Shown: positions 9,125 to 62,109, counted from the first letter of the stretch. The stretch: 64,000 nt of DNA from Candidatus Doudnabacteria bacterium (GCA_028286905.1 JAQBQP010000002.1:245458-309457); one strand, 5' to 3'. Notes: generated by a model not told the origin, from the letters alone. Program-made: numbers and translations.

Positions 9125-9268
9125 ATCTTGTCTGCAGGCGTCGACCCTTTATCAAAGATAGAGGCGCGGCGCTTGCTCAGAGAGAGCACATGCTTATCTA
9201 AGCATGGTCTGCACCATCACATCGGATGGCTGCGACAGAATTCACAAGAGAATATATGAGGTTGGCAC

Positions 9269-10894: not shown

Positions 10895-10926
10895 TTCGCG
10901 GCAAACCGGTTCTGTTGAATCGCAGT

Positions 10927-10960
10927 AACGGCAAGGTGAGCTATTCCCATAGCTCACCTT
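10927..10960. repeat. perfect 15-bp inverted repeat (GGCAAGGTGAGCTAT-tccc-ATAGCTCACCTTGCC) at the right edge of the GC-rich island
   Basis: Seen directly in the sequence. No downstream T-run, so not a classic intrinsic terminator. Confidence 0.7.
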
Positions 10961-11070
10961 GCCACACTTCACTTTTGACTCGTAAGAGTAGTTTGTAAGA
11001 ATTGCAAATTTCTCTTACTAGTTAAGCCAATAATTAGTAAGTAATTAACCGCATAATTTAAGGAAAAAAC

Positions 11071-14000: not shown

Positions 14001-14313
14001 TATGAACGGCGCAACTATGAACGGCAACGTTATTAGCTGGCCTTCAGAAACAGTTCAAGCAAACAGCTCAATTAGCCATACTTTCAGAGTAAGAGTTAAG
14101 TTTACTCTTCCTGCTGGCTCATTGCAGATGGTAAACACTTATGGTAACACTGTTACTGTAAGAATTACTCAGCCAGTTGTTTTAGGTGCAATCTTTGTTG
14201 CTCCAAAAACTGGTGCGAGCGCAACTGTCGCTTTGGTCTTTGCTGGATTAGTAACTGCATTCTTTGCAGTAGCTAAGTATAAAGGTCTTTTCCCAAAAAT
14301 TCGTTTTGAATAA
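11071..14313 (+). CDS. large surface protein with multiple DUF11 (conserved repeat) domains and C-terminal APKTG sorting-signal-like tail
   Basis: Signal peptide. At least 6 DUF11-type repeats (for example VTKTVRNVARGG...FEITVKNTGSVTATNVFLNDN). C-terminus APKTG, then a 20-aa hydrophobic stretch, then KYKGLFPKIRFE. AAGGA RBS. Confidence 0.75.
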   Translation: MIRKFLERIRFKYLALAIVFIAIAAFGFNHLRNSANADSCGNAPLTPAFNIWPLAWTSSNCQDLPLIETKNLNGTGRDARYSLSQSEHDAGINVNPGDSVRVAVYFHNGASPDDQEAATAHNVLVATQIDSLSGTSHNVSGAITGTGTPAYSYYSETGGDTKINSSVPTTLTYVSGSTQMCIRDAAAQEYGLTSAGSCGSGQTLVAEPDGIFNGAINIGDVKACFPYSGLIIFTLKANGQTPPANTSTTLQVTKTVRNVARGGTAYGKTASAANGEPVDFEITVKNTGSVTATNVFLNDNAVSGLTFSSGTNATGSLPLGDLQPGQTSAPVNFTATFNSSSAVTNVAIARASNAPDAQDSATVTPVTVVVPSNPALSLVKTVRNLTTSGTFAKTANATQSDMVEYKVVITNTGNATVNNLALKDQLPNGIILNSPQSGSVFSDMLGSLASTMTWTITYQATVSANSGSLINTATVTSSNTSPATDSATVNVTPVVNTTRSLTITKQVRDNTQGNTGYASSLNAFNGDTLQYQIIVKNTGNATLNNVVVNDPIPGGLNIVANSFGTNPATNSTINNITIGSLAVGQQFVINFNTTVNLSSPACGTINNTATASADQTSSQSASAVVNVVCNPQPGTLSIVKLVKNITQNTNYSKSVSANQGDRIGYQIQITSTNGAASNVTMLDSLPNYLVYATGSGKLNGNAFADGFISNSQNIGSLSAGQTSTFTFETNVANNLPTCQQTTITNTASTSADRMGTISDSATVFVTNNNGCGGGGSTYAQMTINKLVKNSNQNNSFQKSVSANQNDRVTFQVTVTNTGTATLSNAYATDLLPNGLSLVFGTVRLDNNTASDQFINNRLYLGSMAPGQQHTITFDATVNNNGTSTMTNVAQAAADNFSMIQDTASVFVSQVQGSNVVLSYAKRAFNDTKNIDATSAPANKEDYITYTLTVSNTGNAPATNFVVSDDLSNVLNYATVTDMNGATMNGNVISWPSETVQANSSISHTFRVRVKFTLPAGSLQMVNTYGNTVTVRITQPVVLGAIFVAPKTGASATVALVFAGLVTAFFAVAKYKGLFPKIRFE

Positions 14314-49735: not shown

Positions 49736-50201
49736 AGTATATTTTGCGGGAGCAATAACCGGAGATCGTTCGCGCGCCTCGATATTCAAAGATATTATTC
49801 AACATATTCAGAGTTTGGATAAAAAAGTACTCACCGAACATTTTCAACTTCAGAATCCGAATACTTTTTTGGCAGAATTTATTAATAAAAAATATGAAGA
49901 TCTTTTGCCAGAAGACATAGAAAAACAAGACACGGCTTGGATAAATGAAGCCACCCACTTGGTTGCGGAAGTTTCGACAGCTTCTACCGGAACTGGCAGA
50001 GAAATCGAGTATGCTCGTAGCAAACATCTTTACGGCCACCCGGAAGCAAAAATATTGTGTTTATACGAAGAGGGTTCTAGGGCTAGCGCAATGATTACGG
50101 GTATGACCCCAGAGCGATATCCGAGTGTAAGAGTAAGGGCATACAAAAATTTAGAACATTTGAAAGAAATTCTAAACGAATTTTTTAACCTGACGGTTTA
50201 G
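49728..50201 (+). CDS. 2'-deoxynucleoside 5'-phosphate N-hydrolase (DNPH1/Rcl-like, nucleoside 2-deoxyribosyltransferase superfamily)
   Basis: VYFAGAITGDR, VLTEHF, AEVSTASTGTGREIEYA and ILCLYEEGSRASAMITGM align with the conserved blocks of DNPH1. Confidence 0.65.
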   Translation: MHKVYFAGAITGDRSRASIFKDIIQHIQSLDKKVLTEHFQLQNPNTFLAEFINKKYEDLLPEDIEKQDTAWINEATHLVAEVSTASTGTGREIEYARSKHLYGHPEAKILCLYEEGSRASAMITGMTPERYPSVRVRAYKNLEHLKEILNEFFNLTV

Positions 50202-50215
50202 CAAATGCTGGAAGA

Positions 50216-50590
50216 TTGAATTTAAAAATGACTAATCATATTCTAAATTTTAGGGAAGTAGACAAGAAGACTTTCGAACTGATTCGGGATGGAGTTAAAA
50301 AGGTTGAAACTAGAGCTGGTTCAAAAGAGTATTTATTAATTCAAGCGGAAGACACTATAACATTTGTGTGCGGCAGTGAAAACGTAACGAAGAAAGTGAT
50401 TAAAGCTAATCGATTTAAAAGTTTTACGGAGCTATTTAATTGGTACAGACCCTGGGATATAAATCCTGACATCATGCGTGGTCCGACCAGTGAATCAGAA
50501 ATGATAGATGTTTATAGGTCATTTCCAGGGTATCCAGAAAGAATAATGGAATTTGGAATTCTAGCATTTAAATTAGAAAATATTAATTAG
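50216..50590 (+). CDS. ASCH domain (PUA-like) protein
   Basis: ASCH-like N-terminus (FELIRDGVKKVETRAGS). Small beta-barrel size. Real start may be the Met at 50228. Confidence 0.55.
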   Translation: MNLKMTNHILNFREVDKKTFELIRDGVKKVETRAGSKEYLLIQAEDTITFVCGSENVTKKVIKANRFKSFTELFNWYRPWDINPDIMRGPTSESEMIDVYRSFPGYPERIMEFGILAFKLENIN

Positions 50591-50601
50591 AAAGGAAAGA
50601 T

Positions 50602-50919
50602 ATGGCAAACGATTTTCAGAAAAAACAACCAACAAAAAACGAAAAAATGTTTTACGATATGGCAATGAGCTTGGAAATGATTGATCGCAGGCTTTGGACG
50701 ACGTCATCTTTTGTAAGCGCTTTAGCAATTCTTGCTAATGTCGAACCAGAAAAAGTTGCGCGCTTATTAACTACAGACATGAATAAGATCCAAGATTTTA
50801 GCAAAAAGATCAACGACGAAATCAATAAAATTGAAGCTGAAGAAAAAGAAAAGAACGGTTCAAGCGAACAAGTTCAAAGTTCTACTCAACCAGGACATGA
50901 AGGCCATAACCACGCCTAG
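50602..50919 (+). CDS. hypothetical small protein
   Basis: 105 aa with a His-rich C-terminus (HEGHNHA). Confidence 0.4.
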   Translation: MANDFQKKQPTKNEKMFYDMAMSLEMIDRRLWTTSSFVSALAILANVEPEKVARLLTTDMNKIQDFSKKINDEINKIEAEEKEKNGSSEQVQSSTQPGHEGHNHA

Positions 50920-50938
50920 ATAGTTAAATACAAACAAA

Positions 50939-51415
50939 TTGAAATATAAAAGTAAAAATTATTGGTTGTTAAAATCAGAAGCGGAAATGTATTCGATTGA
51001 TGATTTTAAAAAAGACCAAGATACTGTTTGGACTGAAGTCCGTAATTACCAGGCACGCAATTTTCTGCGGGACAGTATCAGCGTCGGTGATTATTTTTTC
51101 TTTTATCATTCTAGCTCAGAACCTTCTGGCATTGCCGGGGTCGGCAAAATATTGAGAACCAAAATTGGTGATCCAACAGCGCTTGATAAAAAAAGTGAAT
51201 ATTTTGACCCGAAGGCTACTAAAGAGCACAATCCTTGGTCTACTGTTGAAGTGCAATTTGTAGAAAAATTTCCTGCTGTGATTACGCTTGCTGAGGTTAA
51301 GCAAAATAAAAAACTTTCAAAAATGGTTGTCGCTCAAAAAGGCAGCCGTCTTTCTGTGCAGCCTGTTAAAGCCGACCAGTTTGAAGAAATTATGAATATG
51401 GCTTATGGACATTAA
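50939..51415 (+). CDS. EVE domain (PUA-like, DUF55) protein
   Basis: EVE pattern (NYWLLKSEAEMYSIDDF ... DYFFFYHSSSEPSGIAGVGKI ... FDPKATKEHNPW). Confidence 0.7.
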   Translation: MKYKSKNYWLLKSEAEMYSIDDFKKDQDTVWTEVRNYQARNFLRDSISVGDYFFFYHSSSEPSGIAGVGKILRTKIGDPTALDKKSEYFDPKATKEHNPWSTVEVQFVEKFPAVITLAEVKQNKKLSKMVVAQKGSRLSVQPVKADQFEEIMNMAYGH

Positions 51416-51989
51416 AAAAAAGCAAAAACTCTTAGAGGTTGTTGCTGAAGAAATAGAACAGTGTCCAATTTGTAAAAAGAACACAATTGGCAAAGCGGTG
51501 CCCGGAGAAGGGAATGCTGATGCCGATATTATGTTTATTGGCGAAGCTCCAGGTAAAAACGAAGCTGAAACCGGTCGGCCGTTCATTGGCCGAGCAGGCA
51601 AAATGCTTCGTGAAGGAATCGCTCAGATTGGATTGAGTGATCAAGATGTTTTTATCACTAGTCCAGTAAAAAGATTGCCGGTACATACCACTCCGACCCC
51701 AGAAGAAATTGCGCACGGCAAAACTCATTTAATTAAACAGTTTGATATTATCGATCCGAAAGTAATTGTTTTGCTGGGACGGGTTGCGGCTTTAGCGATG
51801 TTAGAGAAAAATATTTCGGTAATGAAAGAACATGGTAAATTCTTCCGTAAACCTGACGGCAGATTATACATGATTATGATGCATCCAGCGGCACCTTTAT
51901 ATTCTGGTAATTTGCGTGAAGTTTTTTTCAAAGATTTTAAAAAACTAAAAAAACTACTGGACTTAGATGCAAAAGCAATTAAGAAATAA
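51405..51989 (+). CDS. uracil-DNA glycosylase, family 4
   Basis: GEGNADADIMFIGEAPGKNEAETGRPFIGRAGKML is the canonical family-4 UDG motif. N-terminal CxxC. Confidence 0.85.
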   Translation: MDIKKKQKLLEVVAEEIEQCPICKKNTIGKAVPGEGNADADIMFIGEAPGKNEAETGRPFIGRAGKMLREGIAQIGLSDQDVFITSPVKRLPVHTTPTPEEIAHGKTHLIKQFDIIDPKVIVLLGRVAALAMLEKNISVMKEHGKFFRKPDGRLYMIMMHPAAPLYSGNLREVFFKDFKKLKKLLDLDAKAIKK

Positions 51990-52722
51990 GAAAATGATTT
52001 TCTGGTTAATAGTACTTTTAGTTTTAGGATACGCAACTTTTACATATTTACGTTTTGAATATATTTTAAAGCATGCCAATCTTGCAGATATTCAGCAAAA
52101 GGACCTGACATTCGGACAAGGGTCAGTGTTACGCTATATTGCTGCAGGCGATAGCACCGCGGTTGGCGAAGGTGCGAGTAAGGTAGAAAATAGCTATACT
52201 TACAAGCTCGCGCTTAACTTATCTGCTGAGCACACTGTTCAATACAAAAATATTGCCGTGATCGGTGCAAAGACCCAAGATGTTATTGATCATCAGCTTT
52301 CGGAAATTATTAAATATAACCCGGACGTTGTTACAGTTTCAATTAATGCTAATGACTTAACACATTTTGTAAGCGGTAACATTATTTTAAAAAATGATCA
52401 GCTTATTATTGATACAATCCTAAAAAATACCCATGCAAAAATTTATATAACTGACGTCCCAGGCCTACAAAATGCCAAGATCATACCATGGTGGTTTCGA
52501 CATTTGCTTGATTGGAAGGCGAACAGTTTAAATAAAAAAATTCTAACTTTTCAAGATAAATATGAAGGCAATAGGGTAAAAATAGTAGATATTCATAATT
52601 TTGGCTGGGATACTTACCATGATATTCAGAAGACTTTTGCTGCCGATCAATTTCACCCATCGGATTTGGGTTATCAAAACTGGACCAACGCTTTCCTTGA
52701 TAAAATGCTTAAAAAAGACTAA
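51967..52722 (+). CDS. SGNH/GDSL hydrolase family protein
   Basis: N-terminal TM. Block I GDSTAVGEG and block V DQFHPSDLGY. Confidence 0.7.
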   Translation: MQKQLRNKKMIFWLIVLLVLGYATFTYLRFEYILKHANLADIQQKDLTFGQGSVLRYIAAGDSTAVGEGASKVENSYTYKLALNLSAEHTVQYKNIAVIGAKTQDVIDHQLSEIIKYNPDVVTVSINANDLTHFVSGNIILKNDQLIIDTILKNTHAKIYITDVPGLQNAKIIPWWFRHLLDWKANSLNKKILTFQDKYEGNRVKIVDIHNFGWDTYHDIQKTFAADQFHPSDLGYQNWTNAFLDKMLKKD

Positions 52723-52752
52723 AATATATTAGACTAAAATTAAACCTATCCA

Positions 52753-54234
52753 ATGAGAAAAAACCTCAGATTATACCTAACGTTCATATTCATTTTGTTG
52801 ATAGCAGCATTCTCGATCTATATCGACTTGCCACAGGGTAGCAAAATCAGTTTGCCGAAAATAGGTATTGCAAAACGTGAATTTAAACCACATTTAGGAT
52901 TAGACCTTCAAGGTGGAACTCATTTAGAGTATCAGGGTAACTTACAAGATATTCCTGCAGACAAGAGAAAAGACGCAATGGAATCCGTTCGCTCCGCGAT
53001 TGAACGCAGAGTATTTTTCTTTGGCGTTCAAGAGCCTTTAGTAGAGACATCTGGTAGCGATCGAATTATTGTTGAGTTGCCTGGTATTACAGATATTAAT
53101 CAAGCGGTAAGCGTAATCGGCCAAACGCCATTCCTTGAATTTAAAGAGCAAAATCCAAGTCCAACCGGACAGGTTGTCGATGGAAAAGTAGTTATTGATC
53201 CGAACAGTCAGTGGAAATCTACTGGCTTAACCGGAAAAGATTTGTCCTCGGCAACGGTTGAATTTTCTCAACAGGATAATACGCCGCAAATTAGTTTGCA
53301 GTTTAATAGTGAAGGTACAAAACTTTTTGGCGAGATTACTTCTAGAAACTTAGGCAAGCCCGTAGCTATTTTCTTAGATGGAGCGCCGCTTTCAACTCCA
53401 ACTGTGCAAAGTGCAATCACCGATGGTAAAGCAATCATTACAGGACAGTTTACCGTAGATGATGCGAAGCAATTAGTCTCCAGACTTAACTCCGGAGCTT
53501 TGCCGGTACCAATTAAACTTATTTCCCAACAGAACGTTGGTGCAAGTTTAGGTAAAGATTCAATCCAAAAGAGCGCCGTAGCAGGTATTATTGGTCTATT
53601 GTTGATCGTAATATTTATGATTATTTACTACCGATTGCCGGGCGTACTAGCAGTGCTGGCTTTGGTAGTTTATGCATTATTATCCTTCGCAATTTATAAA
53701 ATTGGTATTTCTGTAACCGCAGTATTTCTGGTTGGACTGTTCTTTGTGCTGGCGCTAACCTCCAGTTGGTGGTTTGGAGTAATCGCAGTCTTGTCTTACT
53801 TAGGCCTGATGCTTGCGGGTGGTTTGCATCCAGTGACTTTAACTTTAGCTGGTATCGCTGGTTTTATTCTTTCTATTGGTATGGCTGTTGATGCAAATAT
53901 TTTGATTTTCGAAAGAACTAAGGAAGAGTTAAGATTAGGCAAAGACGTGCCCCAAGCTTTAGAAGATGGATTCAATCGAGCTTGGCTTTCAATTCGCGAC
54001 TCAAACGCGTCGAGCTTAATTACTACTGCAATTCTATATATGTTCGGCACTCCAGCAATTAAAAGCTTTGCTGAAACTTTGGCAATTGGTATTATTATTT
54101 CTTTGTTTACTGCAATTACTGTAACTAAAACTTTCTTGAGAATGTTTATCGGACATAATATTTTAGCGCACCCATGGCTGTTCGGAGCTTCCAGAGAAAA
54201 GAAAACAGAATTAACTACCACAGAGGAACTCTAA
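52753..54234 (+). CDS. secD: protein translocase subunit SecD
   Basis: LGLDLQGGTHLEY motif. Large periplasmic domain followed by 6 TM helices. Confidence 0.85.
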   Translation: MRKNLRLYLTFIFILLIAAFSIYIDLPQGSKISLPKIGIAKREFKPHLGLDLQGGTHLEYQGNLQDIPADKRKDAMESVRSAIERRVFFFGVQEPLVETSGSDRIIVELPGITDINQAVSVIGQTPFLEFKEQNPSPTGQVVDGKVVIDPNSQWKSTGLTGKDLSSATVEFSQQDNTPQISLQFNSEGTKLFGEITSRNLGKPVAIFLDGAPLSTPTVQSAITDGKAIITGQFTVDDAKQLVSRLNSGALPVPIKLISQQNVGASLGKDSIQKSAVAGIIGLLLIVIFMIIYYRLPGVLAVLALVVYALLSFAIYKIGISVTAVFLVGLFFVLALTSSWWFGVIAVLSYLGLMLAGGLHPVTLTLAGIAGFILSIGMAVDANILIFERTKEELRLGKDVPQALEDGFNRAWLSIRDSNASSLITTAILYMFGTPAIKSFAETLAIGIIISLFTAITVTKTFLRMFIGHNILAHPWLFGASREKKTELTTTEEL

Positions 54235-55124
54235 TGCTAAATATCATCAAACATTATAAATTTTGGTTCGGCGTTTCAACCGCATTGTTGATTGCAAGTA
54301 TTATTTCTTTAGCGATTTTCGGTTTAAGATTCGGTATTGATTTTAAAGGCGGCACTGTAACTCAGCTTTCATTTGCAAAAGCGCCAAATTTGGATCAGAT
54401 CAAAGCAGTTGTTGCCAAAGATACAGATGGCGCACAAATTCAGTCCGCTGGCACTAGCGATGTAATTATAAAAACTAAACCTTTAGAAAAACCTGAACAT
54501 GATAAGCTTGAAGCAGACATCAAAGCGCAAGTAGGGGATTTCACCGAGAAATCTTATACTTCGATTGGGCCGATCATCGGACAAGAACTTCGGTCTAAAG
54601 CAATTTATCAATTACTGCTTGTCGCTTTAGGTATTGTTTTATACATCGGCTATGCATTCCGTAAGGTGACTAAGCCTATTACCGCATGGAAATTTGGTTG
54701 GGCCGCAGTGATTGCGCTTGTTCATGATTTGTTCATAGTTGTTGGTTTGTTTTCGATCCTTGGACATTTCTTTAAAGTTGAAATTGATTCTTTGTTTGTA
54801 ACTGCTTTGCTGACAGTGTTAGGTTTCTCTGTTCACGATACGATCGTGGTATTCGACAGAATTAGAGAGAACTTACGTACCGAAGCCGGACAACCGATCG
54901 ATTACATTGTTAACCACAGTATCAACCAGACAATCGTTCGCTCATTAAACACTTCTTTAACAGTTTTGTTTGTCTTGCTTTCCTTGTTGTTGTTCGGCGG
55001 TGTAACAATTAGATATTTTGTATTAGCATTGTTCATTGGTATTATTGCCGGAACCTACTCATCTATTTTTATCGCTTCGCCAATCCTTGTGATTTGGGAA
55101 CGCTGGCAGTCTAAACGCGCATAA
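54234..55124 (+). CDS. secF: protein translocase subunit SecF
   Basis: GIDFKGGTVTQL motif and 6 TM helices. Start set to the ATG at 54234 (TAATG overlap with the secD stop), not the upstream in-frame ATG. Confidence 0.85.
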   Translation: MLNIIKHYKFWFGVSTALLIASIISLAIFGLRFGIDFKGGTVTQLSFAKAPNLDQIKAVVAKDTDGAQIQSAGTSDVIIKTKPLEKPEHDKLEADIKAQVGDFTEKSYTSIGPIIGQELRSKAIYQLLLVALGIVLYIGYAFRKVTKPITAWKFGWAAVIALVHDLFIVVGLFSILGHFFKVEIDSLFVTALLTVLGFSVHDTIVVFDRIRENLRTEAGQPIDYIVNHSINQTIVRSLNTSLTVLFVLLSLLLFGGVTIRYFVLALFIGIIAGTYSSIFIASPILVIWERWQSKRA

Positions 55125-55248: not shown

Positions 55249-55794
55249 ATGTTCATTTGGCTAATAGTTATTGTTGTTGTAGTTTTGCTGGTAGTGGGCA
55301 TGTTTAACGGTTTGGTTCGCGCACGCAACCTTGTTAAAAACAGCTTTGCAGATATCGATGTTCAATTAAAGCGCAGATATGATCTTGTGCCAAACCTGGT
55401 TGAAACTGTTAAAGGCTATATGAAGCAGGAAAGTGGCGTGCTAGAAGCAGTTACTAATGCTCGCGCACAAGCGCAGTCTGCAGGCGGCAATCTTGCTAAC
55501 AGAGCAACAGCGGAGAACAACCTTGGTCATGCGATTACAGGAATTTTTGCAGTTGCTGAAAATTACCCGCAGTTACGCTCTTCTGAAAACTTTCAACAAT
55601 TACAGAGCCAGCTTTCAAGCTTAGAAAATGATATTCAAAGCGCTCGTCGTTATTACAATGCGGCGGTTCGTGAGTACAATAATAAAATTCAAGTTTTCCC
55701 AAATAATATATTTGCAGGAATGCTTGGCTTTGGCGCCGAGCAGCCATTTGGAGCAGATGAAACCGAACGCCAAAACGTTCAAGTAAAATTTTAA
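55249..55794 (+). CDS. lemA: LemA family protein
   Basis: N-terminal TM plus LemA core (LVRARNLVKNSFADIDVQLKRRYDLVPNLVETVKGY ... ENRISVARRYYN-like region). Confidence 0.85.
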   Translation: MFIWLIVIVVVVLLVVGMFNGLVRARNLVKNSFADIDVQLKRRYDLVPNLVETVKGYMKQESGVLEAVTNARAQAQSAGGNLANRATAENNLGHAITGIFAVAENYPQLRSSENFQQLQSQLSSLENDIQSARRYYNAAVREYNNKIQVFPNNIFAGMLGFGAEQPFGADETERQNVQVKF

Positions 55795-55799
55795 ATAAA

Positions 55800-57557
55800 A
55801 TGCAAATAATTTCTTTAAAACAGAAATTGCAAACCATAGGCTTTTTAATGCTTATGGTTTTTGCGTTTGTACCTGTTAAGACTGAAGCGGCATATTCAGA
55901 AGATATTAAAAGCTTTGCTAGTACACTAAAGATTAATAATGACGGAACAGTAAATGTCTTAGAAAAGATTGTTTATGAATTCGGGACTAATCAGCGCCAT
56001 GGAATATTTAGAGACATTACTTTATCATCCAAAGATGCGCCAACTATTAGCATCAGCAATGTTGCGGTGACAGACTCCAATGGGATGGCCTACCCTTTTA
56101 CGCAGAGTGAAGATTCTGCGCTTCACTTGAAAATAGGCGATCCAAATAACACAATCAGCGGAGAAAAAGAATATGACATTTCTTACACTGTTAGTAACGT
56201 AATTCGCGGCTTCTCCAATTATGATGAATTTTATTGGAATGCCACTGGCAATGCCTGGACTGTGCCTATTTCGTATTCCAGCGCGGAAGTGCAACTGCCA
56301 AGCAATTGGCTGCTGGATCCTGCTGTGCTTCCGAAGATTCAAAATTCTTGTTACCCTGGTACGTTAAACATGCAAAAAGCCGCTTGCACAATCACTTCGA
56401 GCGATGATGGCGGCACTTATGTGTTTTCTTCCGGGCCAACCGATCCGGGGCAAGGGCTAACTATAGATACCAGTTTTCCTAAAAGGCTTGTTACAAATTT
56501 GGCGACTGGTACACCTGTTGATCCAAGTAAAAAAACCACAACCCAAAAGATTTTAGGGATTCTGATCCCGATAGGAACTGGGCTTTTTGTAATTATTTTT
56601 GCGATCTTTTTTGTTTTGTCTAACCGTAAAGTAATAATTCCTAAAGAATTAAAAGGACAACCAATAGCTCCTTGGTATGATGCTCCGGAAGAAGTAAACG
56701 CTGCTGACATCGCGTATCTTTTGAACAGATCCTTCGATAAAAAAGAATTTGGTCTAATCTTTATTGATCTAGCTGTTAAAGGCTATCTAAAAATAAAATA
56801 TATTCCTAAACAAAGCGTCTTTAGTAGTGAAGATTATGCTTTTTTAAAGCTTAAAGAAGACGATGGTTTAGAGCCGGCCTATAAAAGACTGTTTGACTAT
56901 CTTTTTACAGGTGTAGATACAGTTTTATTATCCGATATTAAAAGTGATAACAGAGCCGTCGCTTCTGTTTATTCAAAGATTGGAGATGACCTTAGGTCTA
57001 AATTGATTAATAAAGACTATTTAAAGGCTAGCGCTCTGAATTTAAAGAATACTTCTAAATTTGGAGGCGGTGGAGTTCTCGTTTTTGCTTTGGCCTTCGC
57101 TTTTCGGCCACTTTTAATAATTTCCGTGCCACTTATTTGTTTAATTTTCATAATCGCTTACTATCGCAATTTAAACAATGTAACTCCTAGCGGTATTGAA
57201 TTGTTTAAAAAGATTTTAGGGTTCAAAGATTTCTTAACACTAACCGAATCAGATCGATTGCGGTTGTTAAATGCTCCGTCTCTTAAACCAGAGATGTTCG
57301 AAAAGTTTTTGCCTTACGCGATGGCTTTTGGCATTGAGAAGGAATGGGCGAAAAAATTCGAAAGCTTAGCAATCACTCCAAGTTGGTATGAAGATAGCCG
57401 TTATGGTTATGGCGCGCCAATTAATACTTTAATTTTGGCAAACTTTATTGGCAATCTAAATTCTGGAGTAGCTAGCGCCTCCACCTACAGTAGTGGTAGA
57501 AATGGTGCAGGGTATTCAGGAGGAGGTTCTGGCGGTGGAGGAGGCGGTTCTTGGTAA
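55800..57557 (+). CDS. DUF2207 domain membrane protein (conserved LemA partner) with Gly-rich C-terminus
   Basis: Signal peptide, extracytoplasmic domain, TM helices and terminal GGSGGGGGGSW. LemA-DUF2207 adjacency is the conserved arrangement. Confidence 0.7.
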   Translation: MQIISLKQKLQTIGFLMLMVFAFVPVKTEAAYSEDIKSFASTLKINNDGTVNVLEKIVYEFGTNQRHGIFRDITLSSKDAPTISISNVAVTDSNGMAYPFTQSEDSALHLKIGDPNNTISGEKEYDISYTVSNVIRGFSNYDEFYWNATGNAWTVPISYSSAEVQLPSNWLLDPAVLPKIQNSCYPGTLNMQKAACTITSSDDGGTYVFSSGPTDPGQGLTIDTSFPKRLVTNLATGTPVDPSKKTTTQKILGILIPIGTGLFVIIFAIFFVLSNRKVIIPKELKGQPIAPWYDAPEEVNAADIAYLLNRSFDKKEFGLIFIDLAVKGYLKIKYIPKQSVFSSEDYAFLKLKEDDGLEPAYKRLFDYLFTGVDTVLLSDIKSDNRAVASVYSKIGDDLRSKLINKDYLKASALNLKNTSKFGGGGVLVFALAFAFRPLLIISVPLICLIFIIAYYRNLNNVTPSGIELFKKILGFKDFLTLTESDRLRLLNAPSLKPEMFEKFLPYAMAFGIEKEWAKKFESLAITPSWYEDSRYGYGAPINTLILANFIGNLNSGVASASTYSSGRNGAGYSGGGSGGGGGGSW

Positions 57558-57645
57558 ATCCCTTAATCTTAGCCTTTTTCAATCATTTTTGGTCATTATG
57601 ACTCACGCTTGACGGTTTGTAAAGTTTATGATATAGTACGGGCAT

Positions 57646-58782
57646 ATGGAAAACTCGTCGGAAAACAGCGAAGAACAAAAAAAAGCCTTATCAGGTATTT
57701 TGGATAAGATTATCGATAGCAAACAGAGCGTTTCATTACAAAATTTTGAACCAGCTTTAGTAGCTAGTCGCATTTTAAACCTGTTAAAAGAACGTGATCG
57801 CCAAATTTTAGCGAAGCGTTTTGGGCTTCTTGCCTTTTCTCCACGAACTTTAGAAGCGATTGGCAAAGAACATAACCTTACTCGTGAGCGTGTTCGCCAG
57901 ATCGAAAAAGATTCGATCAAATTTTTACGTTCTAAGCTCGATGAACAACAGCTCTCCGAAGCTGTTAAGATGCTAGCGCATATCATCAGTGATTGCGGTA
58001 AAATAATCAAAGAAATTGAGCTTATCAAAATGCTTTCGATGGAAGCCACTGAAGAAGAGAAGCGCTCGATCCTTTTCTTGCTACATATTGCAGAAGAACT
58101 ATTGGAAGTGAAAGAAAGCGAAATGCTGCACAATGCTTGGGCGTCAGTTACTTATAACCATGAATTTTTCCTTAGTATCATTGATTCTGCAAAGGCAATA
58201 TTGAAGGCTGAAGGCAAGCCTTTGGACGAGCTTGAGCTTATTGATAAACTTCGCCAGACAGAAATTTACAAGAATAATCAATTAGAACTAAACGAAAAGG
58301 TTCTAAAAAATTATATTGAAATTAGTAAAGAAATTTCCAAAAATCCATTTGGCCAATATGGTTTAAATGAATGGAGAGAAATTAAACCTAAAGATGTCGG
58401 CGACAAGGCATATATTGTCTTAAAGCACGAAGGTAAGCCTGAACACTATTCCGCAATCACTGCTTTAATTAATAAGCATGGTTTTGATAAGAGAGTTGCA
58501 AACAAAGAAAGCGTGCATAACGAACTTATCAAAGACCCGCGCTTTGTTTTGGTTGGACGTGGAATTTATGCTTTAACCGAATGGGGTTTTGAAAAAGGTG
58601 TCGTTGCCGATGTTATTATTGAAATTCTTAGAAAAACAAACGGCCCAATGAGCAGAGAAGAAATTATCAATGAAGTTATGAAAAAGCGCATGGTTAAGAG
58701 AAACACAGTTTTGGTTGCGCTTTCAAACAAGCAGATTTTTGCCAAGATCCATAAAAATAAGTACGATCTGGTAATGAGATAG
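57646..58782 (+). CDS. DNA-binding protein with sigma-70 region 4-type HTH plus C-terminal uncharacterised domain
   Basis: ILAKRFGL ... TLEAIGKEHNLTRERVRQIEKDSIKFLR is a canonical sigma-70 region 4 HTH. No region 2 is recognisable. Confidence 0.55.
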   Translation: MENSSENSEEQKKALSGILDKIIDSKQSVSLQNFEPALVASRILNLLKERDRQILAKRFGLLAFSPRTLEAIGKEHNLTRERVRQIEKDSIKFLRSKLDEQQLSEAVKMLAHIISDCGKIIKEIELIKMLSMEATEEEKRSILFLLHIAEELLEVKESEMLHNAWASVTYNHEFFLSIIDSAKAILKAEGKPLDELELIDKLRQTEIYKNNQLELNEKVLKNYIEISKEISKNPFGQYGLNEWREIKPKDVGDKAYIVLKHEGKPEHYSAITALINKHGFDKRVANKESVHNELIKDPRFVLVGRGIYALTEWGFEKGVVADVIIEILRKTNGPMSREEIINEVMKKRMVKRNTVLVALSNKQIFAKIHKNKYDLVMR

Positions 58783-58818
58783 TTTGTTTTGGGTGGTATT
58801 TAAAATCTTGAAATAAAA

Positions 58819-60147
58819 ATGGAAATTTTTGCAACAATAGCTCAAGCACTGACAGAGATGACCTCGTCCGCCTGGTTCTTTTTTTCGCATGGCGCCTGGG
58901 TTATTTTTGCGATTTTAGTTTATGTAATGCTTCGAAAGCTTTACATGGACCGGATCAATGGCGCTTTTATCATGTCCAATACGCCAGTCTTTTTGCATAT
59001 CAAGATTGAAAAAGAAAACTTACAAAGCAACTTGGCAGTTGAACAAATTTTTGCCAACCTCCATGCGATGCACGGAAATTTTACCTGGGCAGAAATTCAT
59101 TTGGAAGGGAAAATTCAGCTTTGGATTTCTTTTGAGATTGTCAGTTTGGGTGGAAAAATTTCTTATATTGTACGAACTCCTGAAAAGCTGATCAATTTGG
59201 TTCAAAGCGTTTTTTACGCCCAATATCCAAATGCCGAAATCTCTCAAGTTGAGGATTATATGAAGAATTTGGAACATTGGGATCAGCATCATGCCACTTG
59301 GGATTTATGGGGCACTGAATTTAAAATGACCAGAGACTACGCCTATCCAATTAAAACTTGGAGGGAATTTGAACATCCTAGCGCCGAAGTGCCAATTTTG
59401 GACCCCTTAACCTCAATGTTGGAAGCGCTAAGCAGAGCAGAAGCACATGAACTTTTGGCAATGCAAATAATTATTCGCCCAGTTGCGGATAATGAATGGG
59501 TGCCACATGTTCAGGAAGTGGTGAAAAAATTAAAAGAAGAACCGGTGCCGCACAAAGCAACCTGGGTAGATCGGATCTTTCCTTTTGTAAACTGGGGTAG
59601 CGAAAAAACATTGTTTGAGGTAATTGCTGGAGGCGAGGGTGGACACGGCGGTCACGACGATAAAAAACCCGATCAGCCGAAAGTTTTGCGAATGTCTGAA
59701 GGTGAAAGAAATATTTTAAAGGCGATCGAAACAAAGATTACTAAGCCAGGTTATCAGGTTAAAATTAAGTATTTATATATTGCGCCAAAAGACAAATTTG
59801 ACGGCTCAAAGAAAAGTGCGATGATCGGCGCAATGCGCGGTTTCGGCGGAATTGTCACAAACAATTTGAAACCGGACGTTTCAGGAACTTGGACCAACTA
59901 TAACTATAAACTTTTTAAAGCTTTAGAAAAACCTTTTGTGGATTTTGTGAATGTTGAAAGAAAACATTTATTCCTAAAGGGTTACGTTCGCAGAAGCATG
60001 TGGATTGGGGCAAACCCGATGGTTATGAATACCGAAGAACTGGCAACGCTTTATCACTTTCCTTTGGCTACAATTGGCACTGCGCCAGTCGAGAGAATTG
60101 ATGTTAAAAAAGGTCAGCCGCCTGCAAACTTACCAATAATGAGTTAG
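58819..60147 (+). CDS. membrane-anchored hypothetical protein (partner of the downstream coupling-type ATPase)
   Basis: N-terminal TM (WFFFSHGAWVIFAILVYVML). Gly/His-rich low-complexity patch (GGEGGHGGHDDKKPD). Confidence 0.45.
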   Translation: MEIFATIAQALTEMTSSAWFFFSHGAWVIFAILVYVMLRKLYMDRINGAFIMSNTPVFLHIKIEKENLQSNLAVEQIFANLHAMHGNFTWAEIHLEGKIQLWISFEIVSLGGKISYIVRTPEKLINLVQSVFYAQYPNAEISQVEDYMKNLEHWDQHHATWDLWGTEFKMTRDYAYPIKTWREFEHPSAEVPILDPLTSMLEALSRAEAHELLAMQIIIRPVADNEWVPHVQEVVKKLKEEPVPHKATWVDRIFPFVNWGSEKTLFEVIAGGEGGHGGHDDKKPDQPKVLRMSEGERNILKAIETKITKPGYQVKIKYLYIAPKDKFDGSKKSAMIGAMRGFGGIVTNNLKPDVSGTWTNYNYKLFKALEKPFVDFVNVERKHLFLKGYVRRSMWIGANPMVMNTEELATLYHFPLATIGTAPVERIDVKKGQPPANLPIMS

Positions 60148-60156
60148 AATATAAAC

Positions 60157-62109
60157 ATGAGTGAAGCATCTGAAAATCAAGTAACTCTATTTGCTAGAAC
60201 AAACTTCCGTAATCGGCAGGTGCCTTTTGGTATAAAACGTGAAGATCGCCGCAAGCACATGTATATCGTTGGTAAAACTGGTATGGGCAAAACCAACATG
60301 ATCGAAAATATGATCATCCAAGATATTGTTAATGGCGAAGGCGTTTGCTTCGTAGATCCAAACGGAGATGCAATTGAAAAGATTTTAGATTATATTCCTG
60401 CAAAGCGTATTAATGATGTTGTTTATGTAAACCCTGCGGACATGGATTTTCCAATTGCTTTTAATATTTTGGAGTCGGTTGACCCAAAGTATAAGCATTT
60501 GGTCGCTTCAGGTTTAATGTCGGTGTTTACTAAAATTTGGGCAAACCTTTGGTCTGCCCGTATGGAATATATTTTAAACAATTCGATTTTAGCTTTGCTT
60601 GATTCGCCAGGGAACACTTTGTTAGGAATCTCAAGACTACTTGTTGATAAAAAATATCGCAAGAAGATTGTAGACAACATCAAAGATCCGATGGTTAAAT
60701 CCTTTTGGGTTGATGAATTTGCAAACTGGAATGAAAAATATCGAATGGAAGCAATTGCTCCGATCCAAAATAAAGTTGGACAATTTTTATCTTCCGGTAT
60801 TATTAGGAACATTGTTGGCCAACCAAAGAGCACTTTGGATTTGCGTGAATTGATGGATAATAAGAAAATTCTTTTAGTTAACCTTTCCAAAGGACGCGTT
60901 GGAGAAGATAATTCAGCGTTGCTTGGAGCGATGATTATTACTAAACTACAGCTCGCAGCTTTCTCTCGAGCGGACATTCCAGAAGATGATCGCGCGGATT
61001 TTTATTTATATGTCGACGAGTTTCAGAACTTTGCTACCGAGTCTTTTGCGACAATTCTATCTGAAGCGAGAAAATATCATTTAAATTTGATCATTGCCCA
61101 CCAGTATATTGGTCAATTGGTTCAAGAAAAAAATACTAAAGTTCGAGATGCAGTTTTTGGTAACGTCGGCACAATGATTACTTTTAGAATTGGCGCGGCT
61201 GACGCTGAGTTTTTAGAGAACGAATTCATGCCGCTGTTTACCGAAAACGATTTGGTAAATATTCCAAAATATACAATTTTATTGAAATTAATGATTAACG
61301 GCGTTGCTTCCGATCCTTTTACTGCAGAAACTTTGCCGCCAAGTACATACGTTCGAACTGACTCAACGGAAAAAGTTATTCGAGTTTCCAGAGAGCGCTA
61401 TGCAAATCCAGTTGCAGAAGTAGAGGAAAAAATTATGCGTTGGATGGGTCAAGATTATCATGAGCAGGCAGCAGTGATCGCAAGTCATGCGAACTTTGAA
61501 CATTCTAACGAAGAAGAGTTGGAGTTGCCGGAAGAAGCGCCTGCAGAAAACAAAGAGCAATCAGTAGTTCCTGCTTTTGTTGAAAATACTATAATCGAGA
61601 ATCCTGTAATAATAGAAGAATCGGTGCCCGCTAGATCAGTTCCGCAAGCTTTAGTGCAGCAGCCAGCGGTAAAGACCGAAACGATGCGAATGCAGGCAGA
61701 GGCGCCAATGCCAGAGCGCAGGCATGAGCAAAGAAGAAAAGACCGTCCATCCCAAGCCCCAAAGCCGCAGCAAAATAAACCGCAGAACAAGCCTCAAAAT
61801 TCCAAGAAGGAAAACCCAATTTGGAATCAAGTTGCAGATTTGCACCAGGGTTCAAAGAAAACCGAAGATCAATTTTTGAAATCTTTTGAAAGCTTAAAAT
61901 TTGATGAACCTATTTTAACAAAAGCTTCAGAGCCTGCCTCGGCTAAGCCAGAGCCTATTCAAACACCAATTGTTCAACCGCAGCAATTAGAATCCTTTGA
62001 TGAAATTCCTGATAATTTAGTTCCAATGCCGGTTCAGCAAAGTACGAATGATTCTAATCAACGTTCTGTTTTGCAGCCCGGACAATCAGTAAAAATAGAT
62101 GACAACTAA
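60157..62109 (+). CDS. VirD4/TraG-type coupling protein-like ATPase (soluble, no TM domain) with Pro/Gln-rich disordered C-terminus
   Basis: Walker A IVGKTGMGKT followed by FVDPNGD (the T4CP D-P-x-G-E/D motif). Walker B YLYVDEFQNF. IIAHQYIGQL. About 200 C-terminal low-complexity residues. Confidence 0.6.
   Translation: MSEASENQVTLFARTNFRNRQVPFGIKREDRRKHMYIVGKTGMGKTNMIENMIIQDIVNGEGVCFVDPNGDAIEKILDYIPAKRINDVVYVNPADMDFPIAFNILESVDPKYKHLVASGLMSVFTKIWANLWSARMEYILNNSILALLDSPGNTLLGISRLLVDKKYRKKIVDNIKDPMVKSFWVDEFANWNEKYRMEAIAPIQNKVGQFLSSGIIRNIVGQPKSTLDLRELMDNKKILLVNLSKGRVGEDNSALLGAMIITKLQLAAFSRADIPEDDRADFYLYVDEFQNFATESFATILSEARKYHLNLIIAHQYIGQLVQEKNTKVRDAVFGNVGTMITFRIGAADAEFLENEFMPLFTENDLVNIPKYTILLKLMINGVASDPFTAETLPPSTYVRTDSTEKVIRVSRERYANPVAEVEEKIMRWMGQDYHEQAAVIASHANFEHSNEEELELPEEAPAENKEQSVVPAFVENTIIENPVIIEESVPARSVPQALVQQPAVKTETMRMQAEAPMPERRHEQRRKDRPSQAPKPQQNKPQNKPQNSKKENPIWNQVADLHQGSKKTEDQFLKSFESLKFDEPILTKASEPASAKPEPIQTPIVQPQQLESFDEIPDNLVPMPVQQSTNDSNQRSVLQPGQSVKIDDN

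Follow-up and report, generated by a model that had tools for sequence, protein, structure and literature searches.

A probable two-subunit coupling protein of the DUF8128 class in a core operon of Patescibacteria

The canonical coupling proteins (T4CPs) of type IV secretion systems (T4SS), e.g., TrwB of R388, VirD4, TraD, DotL and Cagbeta, are mobile and fast-evolving. TrwB carries two N-terminal transmembrane (TM) helices on its own chain, and TraD as well as DotL possess long C-terminal tails with partner-binding motifs. In Actinomycetota, e.g., Embleya sp. NBC_00896 (plasmid protein WP_331738717), Nonomuraea rubra and Streptomyces yunnanensis, proteins annotated as 'type IV secretory system conjugative DNA transfer family protein' consist of a single N-terminal TM helix, a DUF8128 domain and a TrwB-type ATPase with TraG-D_C, in this order, and precomputed Pfam labels place PF26449 on these chains together with PF10412, PF01935 and PF12696. 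We found no experimental characterization of the actinobacterial DUF8128 proteins in the literature. They are fused and sometimes also split, as in a Streptomyces pair of 460 aa and 384 aa, and their genes reside on plasmids or islands, where they follow virB4 and are accompanied by T4SS_pilin, TrbL_3 (VirB6-like), PrgI (VirB3-like), Replic_Relax and an NlpC/P60 hydrolase. The fused form is also carried by jumbo and SPO1-like phages of Bacillus: gp156 of phage G, whose gene follows that for the VirB4-like ATPase gp155, and its homologues from further Bacillus phages, SPO1-like ones among them (phrog_5156), join a DUF8128-like N-terminal half and the ATPase in one chain that is devoid of an N-terminal TM helix.

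With regard to Patescibacteria, VirD4-type homologues have been reported for 2,918 out of 3,035 genomes, with only 148 near virB4, and VirB4 itself was found in fewer genomes, namely 2,417 (PMC12102498). The occurrence of such homologues away from virB4 is therefore already part of the literature, as is the affiliation of the patescibacterial T4SS, which is nested within the monoderm MPF-FATA class and features VirB2-like pilins (PMC12102498). For Candidatus Southlakia epibionticum ML1, SEML1_0294 (349 aa, Sigma70_r4 and HARE-HTH) is located directly 5' of SEML1_0293 (921 aa, TrwB_AAD_bind at 402-719), and both have been flagged as core, Patescibacteria-enriched families (Wang et al., 2023). 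By Tn-seq, SEML1_0294 and the T4SS genes of this organism were called essential, and SEML1_0293 non-essential in co-culture, with its normalized reads dropping from 5817 to 1372 within two passages (Wang et al., 2023).

Here, we studied three co-oriented genes, A, B and C, in the chromosome of a Candidatus Doudnabacteria bacterium, using a window (the whole stretch of DNA analyzed) of 64,000 nucleotides. ORF calling confirmed the positions of the genes and the length of 650 aa for C that had been proposed in an initial annotation of this DNA. The features are as follows.

57609..57637, + strand: promoter-like site TTGACG-17 nt-TATAGT, TG before the -10 hexamer (consensus scan, 10/12 matches)
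57646..58782, + strand: gene A, 378 aa, predicted soluble DNA-binding protein (Pfam domains)
57775..57930, + strand: Sigma70_r4 domain of A, residues 44-95, including helix TRERVRQIE (Pfam, E 2e-12)
58405..58584, + strand: HARE-HTH domain of A, residues 254-313 (Pfam, E 4e-13)
58819..60147, + strand: gene B, 442 aa, membrane-anchored subunit, PF26449 (DUF8128) (Pfam label of homologues)
58870..58938, + strand: single TM helix of B, residues ~18-40 (hydropathy scan and flanks)
60034..60144, + strand: C-terminal motifs of B, N-x-EE-LAT-LYHFP (404-415) and QPPxNLP (434-440) (invariant columns, alignment A1)
60157..62109, + strand: gene C, 650 aa, soluble VirD4/TrwB-type ATPase (Pfam, NCBIfam, PDB, hhalign, Foldseek)
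60220..61446, + strand: ATPase core of C, residues 22-430, nucleotide-binding domain (hhalign, Foldseek, AF2)
60271-60294, + strand: Walker A of C, G39-KTGMGK-T46 (read from sequence)
61015-61023, + strand: Walker B of C, D287-E-F289 (read from sequence)
61477..62106, + strand: disordered tail of C, residues 441-650, E/P/Q-rich (composition, alignment A2)

The promoter-like site, a pattern match only, lies within the 88-bp gap 5' of gene A. LemA, DUF2207, MnmA and inorganic pyrophosphatase are encoded in the flanks, which bears out the housekeeping surroundings (lemA, mnmA) described before; lemA and the DUF2207 gene sit between secF and A in this genome. Just as the initial annotation had it, neither VirB4 nor a relaxase nor a T4SS pilin is encoded by any of the ~35 larger ORFs scanned in the window, and HMM profiles retrieved no second copy of B or C from its six-frame translation.

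Judged by its sequence and its predicted fold, C is of the coupling-protein type and nearer to TrwB, DotL and Cagbeta than to HerA, VirB4 or FtsK. Reading of the sequence verified the proposed order of Walker A, D-P-x-G-D/E, DEF and Q motifs, the second of which (D67-P-N-G-D71) is identical to VDPNGD of TrwB in the alignment and the last of which reads H315-Q-Y-I-G-Q-L321. In Pfam, two of the profiles proposed earlier for a check, TraG-D_C and T4SS-DNA_transf, matched above their gathering thresholds together with DUF87 and TrwB_AAD_bind, the latter being the best match (47.6 bits, cutoff 20.5, E 1.5e-12); the top NCBIfam matches are conjugative TraD/VirD4-like models, and sequence matches in the PDB are confined to TrwB and DotL. 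Using hhalign, residues 28-323 of C aligned with 118-392 of TrwB from Walker A to Walker B (91% probability, 258 columns), whereas the P-loop alone aligned with VirB4/TrwK. HerA and VirB4 ranked behind TrwB, DotL and Cagbeta in Foldseek searches with the AF2 model, the mean pLDDT of which is mediocre (65.5). Its worst part is an all-helical insertion (residues ~104-221 according to AF2 secondary structure) predicted where T4CPs have their all-alpha domain. Canonical T4CPs are thus the best matches of C in sequence as well as in fold, sharing motif order, VDPNGD and helical insertion, and Pfam, PDB sequence matches, hhalign and Foldseek agree with the original grouping with VirD4/TrwB and not with FtsK/HerA. 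Unlike TrwB, C lacks TM segments of its own, again as first described: no 19-residue window exceeds a Kyte-Doolittle value of 1.5. As in TraD and DotL, the chain ends in an extended tail with motifs that presumably bind partners; two short ones, NPIWNQVA and the C-terminal VLQPGQSVKI, are conserved in alignment A2. NPIWNQVA is what remains, in degenerate form, of a treble-clef zinc finger (CxxC...P-x-YCxxC) that 30 of 72 orthologs of C possess and that matches Pfam PF23477.

The membrane partner B comprises one N-terminal TM helix, an alpha/beta domain of ~380 residues assigned to PF26449 via a label precomputed on homologues, and a conserved disordered C-terminal peptide. The helix is preceded by an acidic and followed by a basic stretch (RKLYMDR), and, by the positive-inside rule, the large domain is probably cytoplasmic. 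In Foldseek searches with the AF2 model of B (mean pLDDT 80.9), the top 13 PDB matches were all TrwK/VirB4 of R388 (E from 4e-5), the sole significant ones, without indication in the output of which part of VirB4 is matched; in BFVD, gp156 of phage G (E 2e-16) and VirB4-like gp155 (E 4e-6) were found. A VirB4-like fold is therefore predicted for the DUF8128 domain (TM ~0.35), although similarity to TrwK or actinobacterial VirB4 was not detected with sequence profiles. VirB4 and the fused relatives of B-C are alike in that such a domain is placed N-terminal to a P-loop ATPase; in contrast to VirB4/TrwK, B itself lacks a P-loop, and C aligns with TrwB but not with TrwK past the P-loop.

Several lines of evidence connect B and C. 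In the single chains from Actinomycetota and Bacillus phages, a homologue of B forms the N-terminal half and the same ATPase as in C the C-terminal half, and the break between B and C corresponds to the domain junction of these fused relatives. On phrog_5156, B occupies profile positions 29-285 and C 396-807; residues 73-424 of B align with 31-319 of phage G gp156, and C from residue 33 with gp156 from ~377. Probabilities with hhalign amounted to 96% for B versus gp156 and 85% for B versus the N-domains of actinobacterial T4CPs; the profile-profile comparison of alignments A1 and A3 (85%, E 6.6e-6) spans 334 columns including the junction motif ELAxLxHxP common to both. The motif stretch at the end of B (60034..60144) represents the ATPase junction of fused relatives and aligns with actinobacterial ELAALAHLP plus PPP and with the linker of gp156. 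The distance between B and C is short (median 10 nt, 79 loci). We thus agree with the initial proposal of B as a true partner of C, given the collinearity with the fusions from phage G and Actinomycetota, and the split into two subunits is likewise supported. Probably, B and C together form a two-subunit split T4CP of a distinct class, in which a TM helix plus the ~400-residue DUF8128 domain replaces the two-helix membrane stub. B is not a mere membrane anchor; its 400-residue domain, which has no counterpart in TrwB, defines a separate class of coupling proteins. The split, which also occurs in Actinomycetota, is a variant of this class and does not resemble the outcome of TM loss from a canonical T4CP. 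Identity of C is 31-32% to the actinobacterial ATPases, with DUF8128 similarity at profile level only, and 22-29% to the phage proteins. Judging from length and domain positions, SEML1_0293 of S. epibionticum is apparently a B-C-like fusion with a DUF8128 N-terminal half. Gene order and strand are those of A followed by the ATPase gene, but the latter is apparently fused, with the ATPase domain starting at residue ~400, and its neighbours are a CRISPR-Cas9 locus and topA instead of secDF and mnmA.

We propose that B inserts with its N-terminus out and tethers its cytoplasmic domain at the membrane, where its conserved C-terminal peptide and last strand would bind the beta-hairpin at the N-terminus of C. 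The latter may then assemble into a hexameric ring like TrwB and thread a polymer through a channel, driven by ATP. The substrate would most likely be nucleic acid, as suggested by the ancestry of the family and the treble-clef zinc finger in many ortholog tails. Most likely, the motor would pass it to, or take it from, the pilus-bearing monoderm-type T4SS for which most Patescibacteria have genes elsewhere on the chromosome, and the terminal motif L-x-P-G-[EQ]-x-[VI]-K-F of the C tail may serve as partner-docking peptide. As no T4SS gene lies near B-C, it is from ancestry only that we infer functional coupling to a T4SS.

Relatives of B are present in at least 569 species-level genomes of Patescibacteria. 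Clusters at 50% identity number 2,771, and the best 150 of these 2,771 are all standalone-sized. Hundreds of species from different classes share the gene order secD-secF-[A]-B-C(-mnmA). The median identity amounts to 65% for C (ATPase core), 52% for SecD and 47% for SecF; C surpasses SecD in 53 of 54 loci, and the identity of the module tracks that of SecD and SecF. B-C accordingly belongs to the core of Patescibacteria as a vertically inherited operon whose ATPase is under exceptionally strong constraint, and differs herein from the mobile and fast-evolving canonical T4CPs and, by its place in a conserved chromosomal core after secDF and A, from the actinobacterial clusters. It also differs from canonical T4CPs in that relaxase or mating-pair genes are not nearby; T4SS genes occur neither in the window nor within 6-10 kb of ~85 related loci, and the chromosomal T4SS is usually encoded elsewhere in patescibacterial genomes. 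The initial interpretation is therefore partly supported. The term 'orphan', if taken to mean a stray remnant, is at odds with the deep synteny and the near-ubiquity of VirD4-type homologues in Patescibacteria (PMC12102498), and repurposing of the split device is only possible.

An origin of the module from an integrated conjugative element or a prophage, as its remnant or cargo among housekeeping genes, might be suspected from relatives on plasmids and in Bacillus phages and from the lack of partner T4SS genes in the window. We regard this as very improbable: the synteny shared by hundreds of species and the parallel identity with SecD/SecF contradict it, the GC content of 0.38-0.40 equals that of the surroundings, and relatives of B were not found on IMG/VR viral contigs. 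The closest relatives have the same flanks over 10 kb on both sides, free of integrase, relaxase and phage genes; in the two closest syntenic ones, the 10 kb past mnmA are occupied by housekeeping genes, and a conjugative element, which would have spoken against the earlier proposal if adjacent, does not occur there. Similarly, a role of the module in anti-phage defence or another conflict, in which a HerA/FtsK-like ATPase would be paired with a sigma-like sensor as in MZA or MADS, is hardly probable. PADLOC yielded weak matches of A with MzaA (E 2e-11, sigma region 4 only) and of C with mad8 (E 1.5e-11) and HerA models, but these are limited to generic domains, i.e., sigma region 4 and the P-loop core. 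Neither a nuclease, SIR2, methylase or other effector gene next to the module nor co-localization with phage-defence genes was seen, and universal vertical inheritance with extreme conservation is the opposite of patchy defence islands.

More serious, albeit still rather unlikely, is the idea that B-C is a T4SS-independent housekeeping translocase, exapted as stand-alone membrane-tethered motor, that might act in DNA uptake via ComEC in place of ComFA, in membrane-associated handling of chromosome or plasmids, or in a process tied to SecDF. In the loci examined, B-C is always found by secDF and never by T4SS genes; this synteny may, however, reflect inherited gene order without functional link, and in the present genome the promoter-like site before A as well as lemA and DUF2207 separate the module from secF. 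T4CP homologues occur in more genomes than VirB4, a gap that may partly be due to incomplete MAGs or weaker detection of VirB4. Conservation of the ATPase, exceeding that of SecD, is far above expectation for a conjugation protein, and many orthologs of C carry the tail zinc finger. In S. epibionticum, the T4SS is essential and the T4CP-like gene is not, so that the motor is dispensable for the essential job of that T4SS, and exaptation has been allowed as a possibility before (PMC12102498). On the other hand, every non-patescibacterial relative with informative context is encoded directly 3' of virB4, and an alternative channel partner is without direct evidence. Coupling to a T4SS remains our preferred reading for B-C.

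Gene A, finally, would be co-transcribed 5' of B-C. The initial annotation correctly recognized its sigma-70 region 4 and missed the HARE-HTH domain, which is of the kind found in the delta subunit of RNA polymerase (RNAP); TIGR04567 (RNAP delta) scored 41.2 bits, below the cutoff of 42. Sigma regions 2 and 3 are absent from A, its PDB sequence matches cover only region 4 of RpoS, RpoD and SigA, and the helix TRERVRQIE resembles the one with which primary sigma factors recognize the -35 element (sigma-70 region 4.2). Both domains are of RNAP- and DNA-binding types, and the probable S. epibionticum ortholog is essential; rather than a dedicated regulator, A is therefore more likely a general factor for transcription or DNA binding, specific to the lineage, that also heads this operon. 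A is probably more than a local regulator, since its S. epibionticum match SEML1_0294 is essential while the adjoining ATPase gene is not. The architecture of A is unchanged in its Azambacteria ortholog, and A is located 5' of B in 60 of 80 related loci.

The window belongs to a chromosome of Candidatus Doudnabacteria (Patescibacteria/CPR). The interval outlined by the initial annotation (57646-62109) coincides exactly with three plus-strand open reading frames, here termed A, B and C, the products of which are identical to MDB4940122-124. They are listed together with the sole Rfam match found at gathering threshold in the window and the diagnostic motifs of protein C:

57646-58782, plus strand: open reading frame A, 378 aa, sigma-70 region 4/HARE-HTH protein
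58819-60147, plus strand: open reading frame B, 442 aa, membrane subunit with DUF8128
60157-62109, plus strand: open reading frame C, 650 aa, VirD4/TrwB-type ATPase
Residues of C: Walker A G39-T46; D67-P-N-G-D71; Walker B D287-E-F289; H315-Q...Q-L321
36533-36911: RNase P RNA, bacterial class A (Rfam, 168.6 bits)

A and B are separated by 36 nt and B and C by 9 nt, while the start of mnmA overlaps the stop of C by 11 nt. The 88-bp spacer 5' of A carries a good promoter-like site (TTGACG-17-TATAGT), no convincing terminator was found between the three genes, and the GC content of the module is that of its neighborhood. The remainder of the window harbors cell-envelope, Sec and translation genes. 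In agreement with the initial annotation, neither a VirB4 nor a relaxase nor a type IV secretion system (T4SS) pilin is encoded in the window, and the same holds true for paralogs of B or C. The secA, secD and secF genes are located at 47060-55124, at most 8 kb upstream of the module. Between secF and A, a lemA gene and a gene for a DUF2207 membrane protein (55249-57557) are present in this genome only. As secF directly adjoins A in the two closest relatives (loci L092 and L093), with neither lemA nor the DUF2207 gene in between, the pair appears to have been inserted recently into a conserved operon region.

The motifs on the basis of which C had been assigned to the type IV coupling proteins (T4CPs) are all present in its sequence. 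TrwB_AAD_bind is the best Pfam model (47.6 bits, cutoff 20.5, E 1.5e-12), and C also passes T4SS-DNA_transf (25.1, cutoff 20.1) and TraG-D_C (28.2, cutoff 22), two models that had been named beforehand as a check on this assignment. In NCBIfam, conjugative TraD/VirD4-like families scored best, and a comparison with all PDB sequences yielded TrwB and DotL only. In hhalign, a profile of C orthologs matches TrwB from Walker A through Walker B with 91% probability, whereas alignment with the VirB4 protein TrwK is confined to the P-loop (probability 1.5%). The assignment of C to the T4CPs is correct, and an identity as an FtsK- or HerA-type protein was rejected on the basis of these comparisons, in which the T4CP models and structures score better: FtsK_SpoIIIE stays below its cutoff (13.6 vs. 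24 bits), and DUF87 (HerA central) is passed (26.5 vs. 23.2) but scores weaker than the T4CP models. Likewise, HerA and VirB4 ranked behind TrwB, DotL and Cagbeta in Foldseek searches with the AF2 model of C (pLDDT 65.5), HerA coming 13th after 12 T4CP chains. Where T4CPs have their all-alpha domain, the model features six helices (residues ~104-221, lying C-terminal to the Walker A part and N-terminal to Walker B) at low confidence, with pLDDT mostly below 50, and the hhalign alignment to TrwB spans this stretch.

As proposed in the initial annotation, C is devoid of transmembrane segments of its own; no hydrophobic segment was found by a hydropathy scan that detects two in TrwB. While canonical T4CPs carry an N-terminal transmembrane domain of typically two helices on the same chain, the anchor of C would be supplied in trans by B, which has a single hydrophobic helix (residues ~18-40). 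This helix is flanked by acidic residues on its N-terminal side and followed by basic residues, such that the large domain of B is predicted by the positive-inside rule to be cytoplasmic. B and its homologs carry PF26449 (DUF8128) according to precomputed database labels, with a separate Pfam scan of B giving no match, and no mention of DUF8128 was found in the literature searched. The AF2 model of B is good (pLDDT 80.9). Its only significant Foldseek matches in the PDB are 13 TrwK/VirB4 chains from structures of the R388 T4SS (E 4e-5 to 3e-3), all following matches being unrelated and non-significant. Among viral models, it retrieved gp156 of phage G (E 2e-16) along with related proteins of Bacillus phages, and VirB4-like gp155 was matched as well (E 4e-6). 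At the sequence level, hhalign of the B profile with TrwK or an actinobacterial VirB4 did not reveal any link, and VirB4 profiles (CagE_TrbE_VirB, AAA_10, P-loop_TraG, TraC_F_IV) matched neither B nor C in a Pfam scan. As sequence profiles miss VirB4, the apparent likeness of B to this protein is one of predicted fold, for which the search does not specify the aligned portion of VirB4.

B and C together are collinear with single-chain proteins from phages and Actinobacteria, which documents the split architecture suggested in the initial annotation. On the profile of PHROG family 5156 (824 positions), B aligns at 29-285 and C at 396-807. In phage G gp156 (825 aa), residues 31-319 correspond to residues 73-424 of B (hhalign 96%) and the part from residue ~377 onward to C from residue 33, so that the C-terminal end of B and the beginning of C together match a single uninterrupted linker. 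Actinobacterial proteins annotated as type IV secretory system conjugative DNA transfer family contain PF26449 within their N-terminal 400 residues and PF10412, PF01935 and PF12696 on the same chains. A profile of this actinobacterial N-domain aligns with that of B over 334 columns (85%, E 6.6e-6), with the invariant EELATLYHFP of B matching actinobacterial PELAALAHLP; the alignment is convincing only with the N-domain profile, single-sequence hhalign of B with the Embleya T4CP being weak (9% probability). A single N-terminal transmembrane helix followed by basic residues is shared by B and the Embleya, Streptomyces and Frankia proteins. Actinobacterial DUF8128-type T4CPs have one transmembrane helix as opposed to two in TrwB, while the phage proteins lack the N-terminal helix found in B. 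An apparent B-C fusion in one related locus (L049) is an artifact caused by a masked stretch of N.

The VirD4/TrwB-type coupling proteins that bear DUF8128 form a class with its ancestral place in T4SS clusters of the pilus-bearing monoderm type, and B-C is a split member of it. The gene for the DUF8128-type T4CP directly follows that for a VirB4-type ATPase in Embleya, Nonomuraea and Streptomyces, where the clusters further comprise T4SS_pilin, TrbL_3 (VirB6-like), PrgI (VirB3-like), Replic_Relax and NlpC/P60 genes. In phage G, the fused gp156 gene comes after that for VirB4-like gp155. The occurrence of T4SS-type integrative and conjugative elements with VirB4 and VirD4 homologs in Actinobacteria was predicted long ago (PMC3218068). 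In Streptomyces yunnanensis, the DUF8128-type T4CP is split into genes for 460 and 384 aa, as in the window. In Nonomuraea rubra (L091:7149-9004), it is VirB4 that is split, into TraC_F_IV and P-loop_TraG genes; taken together, these two cases indicate that splitting at the junction of N-domain and P-loop domain recurs. Neither a search for relatives of B on IMG/VR viral contigs nor tblastn of B against GenBank phages returned any match.

The module had been described as an orphan, which is incorrect: it belongs to a conserved, vertically inherited secDF-[A]-B-C gene set that is found in many patescibacterial lineages. In a scan with one genome for each species, relatives of B were detected in at least 569 genomes, the best 80 of which are all patescibacterial as judged by title or gene content and include Doudna-, Magasanik-, Uhr-, Kerfeld-, Komeili-, Buchanan-, Portnoy- and Azambacteria as well as Minisyncoccales; a few taxon labels among the B-bearing genomes are generic or evidently wrong. 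The order secD-secF-[A]-B-C occurs nearly everywhere in these loci, often with mnmA 1-5 kb downstream. B and C are adjacent in 79 loci (median gap 10 nt), while A was found in 60 of the 80 and is absent mainly from Magasanik- and Uhrbacteria-like loci, in which secF is the immediate neighbor of B. An exhaustive profile search with B yielded 2,771 clusters at 50% identity, the best 150 of which are all stand-alone-sized. Median identity to the proteins of the window amounts to 65% for the C core, 52% for SecD, 47% for SecF, 46% for MnmA, 38% for A and 33% for B, and in 53 of 54 loci the identity of C is higher than that of SecD. The ATPase ranks with the most constrained proteins encoded in the region. 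In Patescibacteria, B-C is a vertically inherited and strongly constrained chromosomal pair located behind secDF and usually behind A.

Canonical T4CPs are linked to genes for relaxases and/or mating-pair formation. In contrast, neither such genes nor other T4SS genes were found in the window, nor did they occur in the flanking regions of some 85 related loci. In L092 and L093, which were used to assess the surroundings of the window, the gene order is the same as in the window from secA through secDF-A-B-C and mnmA to ppa, and the 10 kb beyond contain housekeeping genes only, with no conjugative element adjoining the module in these relatives. A pair of small genes with N-terminal prepilin methylation motifs (N_methyl) is located about 3 kb 3' of the module in L092 (14964-15983), in a region that the window does not reach; they are type IV pilin-like and do not encode T4SS pilins.

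Protein A combines sigma-70 region 4, as stated in the initial annotation, with a HARE-HTH domain, an architecture that is kept in distant lineages. The HARE-HTH part scores just under the threshold of the RNA polymerase delta-subunit model (41.2 vs. 42 bits). Of the sigma-70 regions, region 4 alone was matched in searches of Pfam, NCBIfam and PDB, full-length sigma models remaining far below their cutoffs. As these searches did not find sigma regions 2 and 3, A is not a sigma factor. Its recognition helix, TRERVRQIE, is very similar to the corresponding helix of primary sigma factors. In the saccharibacterium Candidatus Southlakia epibionticum ML1, SEML1_0294 (349 aa, Sigma70_r4 plus HARE-HTH) is located directly upstream of SEML1_0293 (921 aa, TrwB_AAD_bind at residues 402-719) on the same strand, and both were assigned to core families enriched in Patescibacteria (Wang et al., 2023, PMC10633639). 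We infer that the two genes represent the same module with B and C putatively fused. Tn-seq identified SEML1_0294 as essential at all time points and SEML1_0293 as non-essential, with normalized reads falling from 5817 via 2940 to 1372 while neighboring genes stayed flat (PMC10633639). Since SEML1_0294 is essential and belongs to a core family, and since the ATPase gene next to it can be lost, A may be a lineage-specific RNA polymerase-associated or global DNA-binding factor that merits separate study.

Homologs of VirD4 have been reported for 2,918 of 3,035 patescibacterial genomes (96%), VirB4 for 2,417 and relaxases for 103, with only 148 of 5,713 T4CP homologs residing near virB4 (Quiñonero-Coronel et al., 2025, PMC12102498). 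The patescibacterial T4SS was found to be monophyletic and nested in the monoderm MPF-FATA class with VirB2-like pilins; given that the T4CP homologs lack linkage to the T4SS and that relaxases are absent, no role was assigned to them, and the authors considered an exaptation of t4cp possible (PMC12102498). In S. epibionticum the T4SS is essential, and its cluster is devoid of a recognizable coupling protein (PMC10633639). The mechanism that we propose is that B would tether a hexamer of C to the membrane and that ATP hydrolysis would power the movement of a polymer, which is probably nucleic acid, to or from a channel; this channel would most likely be the chromosomal T4SS. DUF8128 ties the unit to the T4CP class of pilus-bearing monoderm T4SS clusters in Actinomycetota and to Bacillus phages. 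The main alternative, a role of B-C independent of any T4SS, is somewhat unlikely in our estimation, yet it is favored by the findings that T4CP homologs occur in more genomes than VirB4, that B-C is never linked to T4SS genes in the patescibacterial loci examined and that the T4CP-like gene is dispensable in a species with an essential T4SS. The module may have been repurposed, as the initial annotation suggested. Interpretations of B-C as the remnant of a mobile element, or of the module as a defense system, are both contradicted by the synteny and conservation data. PADLOC matches, which might have suggested the latter, concern generic domains only.

Patescibacteria, which represent a sizable part of the diversity of bacteria, live on other cells and lack the synthesis of nucleotides, lipids and most amino acids. 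The analysis bears on how they pass macromolecules across their envelope. A speculative extension, to which we assign a low probability, is that A-B-C encodes a long-sought nucleic-acid import motor. VirB4-like B would dock the TrwB-like hexamer of C, with its zinc-finger tail in many lineages, onto the pilus-bearing T4SS or another envelope channel, and the motor would pull in host RNA or DNA. If true, this would account for a "conjugation" ATPase being near-universal in the phylum, relaxase-free and more conserved than SecD, and it would supply host RNA or DNA to cells unable to make nucleotides. Uptake of host RNA by a patescibacterium has been described in a 2026 preprint that leaves the route open. 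While unlinked T4CP homologs in Patescibacteria are already published, the literature searched describes neither the partnership with DUF8128 and its tie to actinobacterial and phage proteins nor the conserved secDF-A-B-C operon and the degree of constraint on the ATPase. The widespread VirD4-type copy is here a two-gene unit with DUF8128, a partner previously without an assigned role. Genetically tractable Saccharibacteria would allow testing of the B-C complex, of a T4SS link or its absence and of a nucleic-acid substrate.

Two further regions deserve mention. Residues 441-650 of C (61477-62106) form a disordered tail rich in E, P and Q, in which two short motifs are conserved among orthologs, including those of loci L026-L083. 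Of 72 orthologs, 30 have the first motif as an intact treble-clef zinc finger (CxxC...P-x-YCxxC, Pfam PF23477); the C of the window has lost the cysteines, and its motif has decayed to NPIWNQVA. The terminal motif, L-x-P-G-[EQ]-x-[VI]-K-F, is kept in most lineages. Elsewhere in the window, positions 8000-12000 exhibit a GC content of 0.47-0.50 compared to ~0.38 in the remainder. This peak takes in an ORF of 541 aa (9269-10894), for which a Pfam scan gave no match, and a long antisense ORF (9242-10450), reaches the start of a gene for a 1080-aa surface protein with DUF11 repeats (11071-14313) and is adjoined by sortase and subtilase genes.
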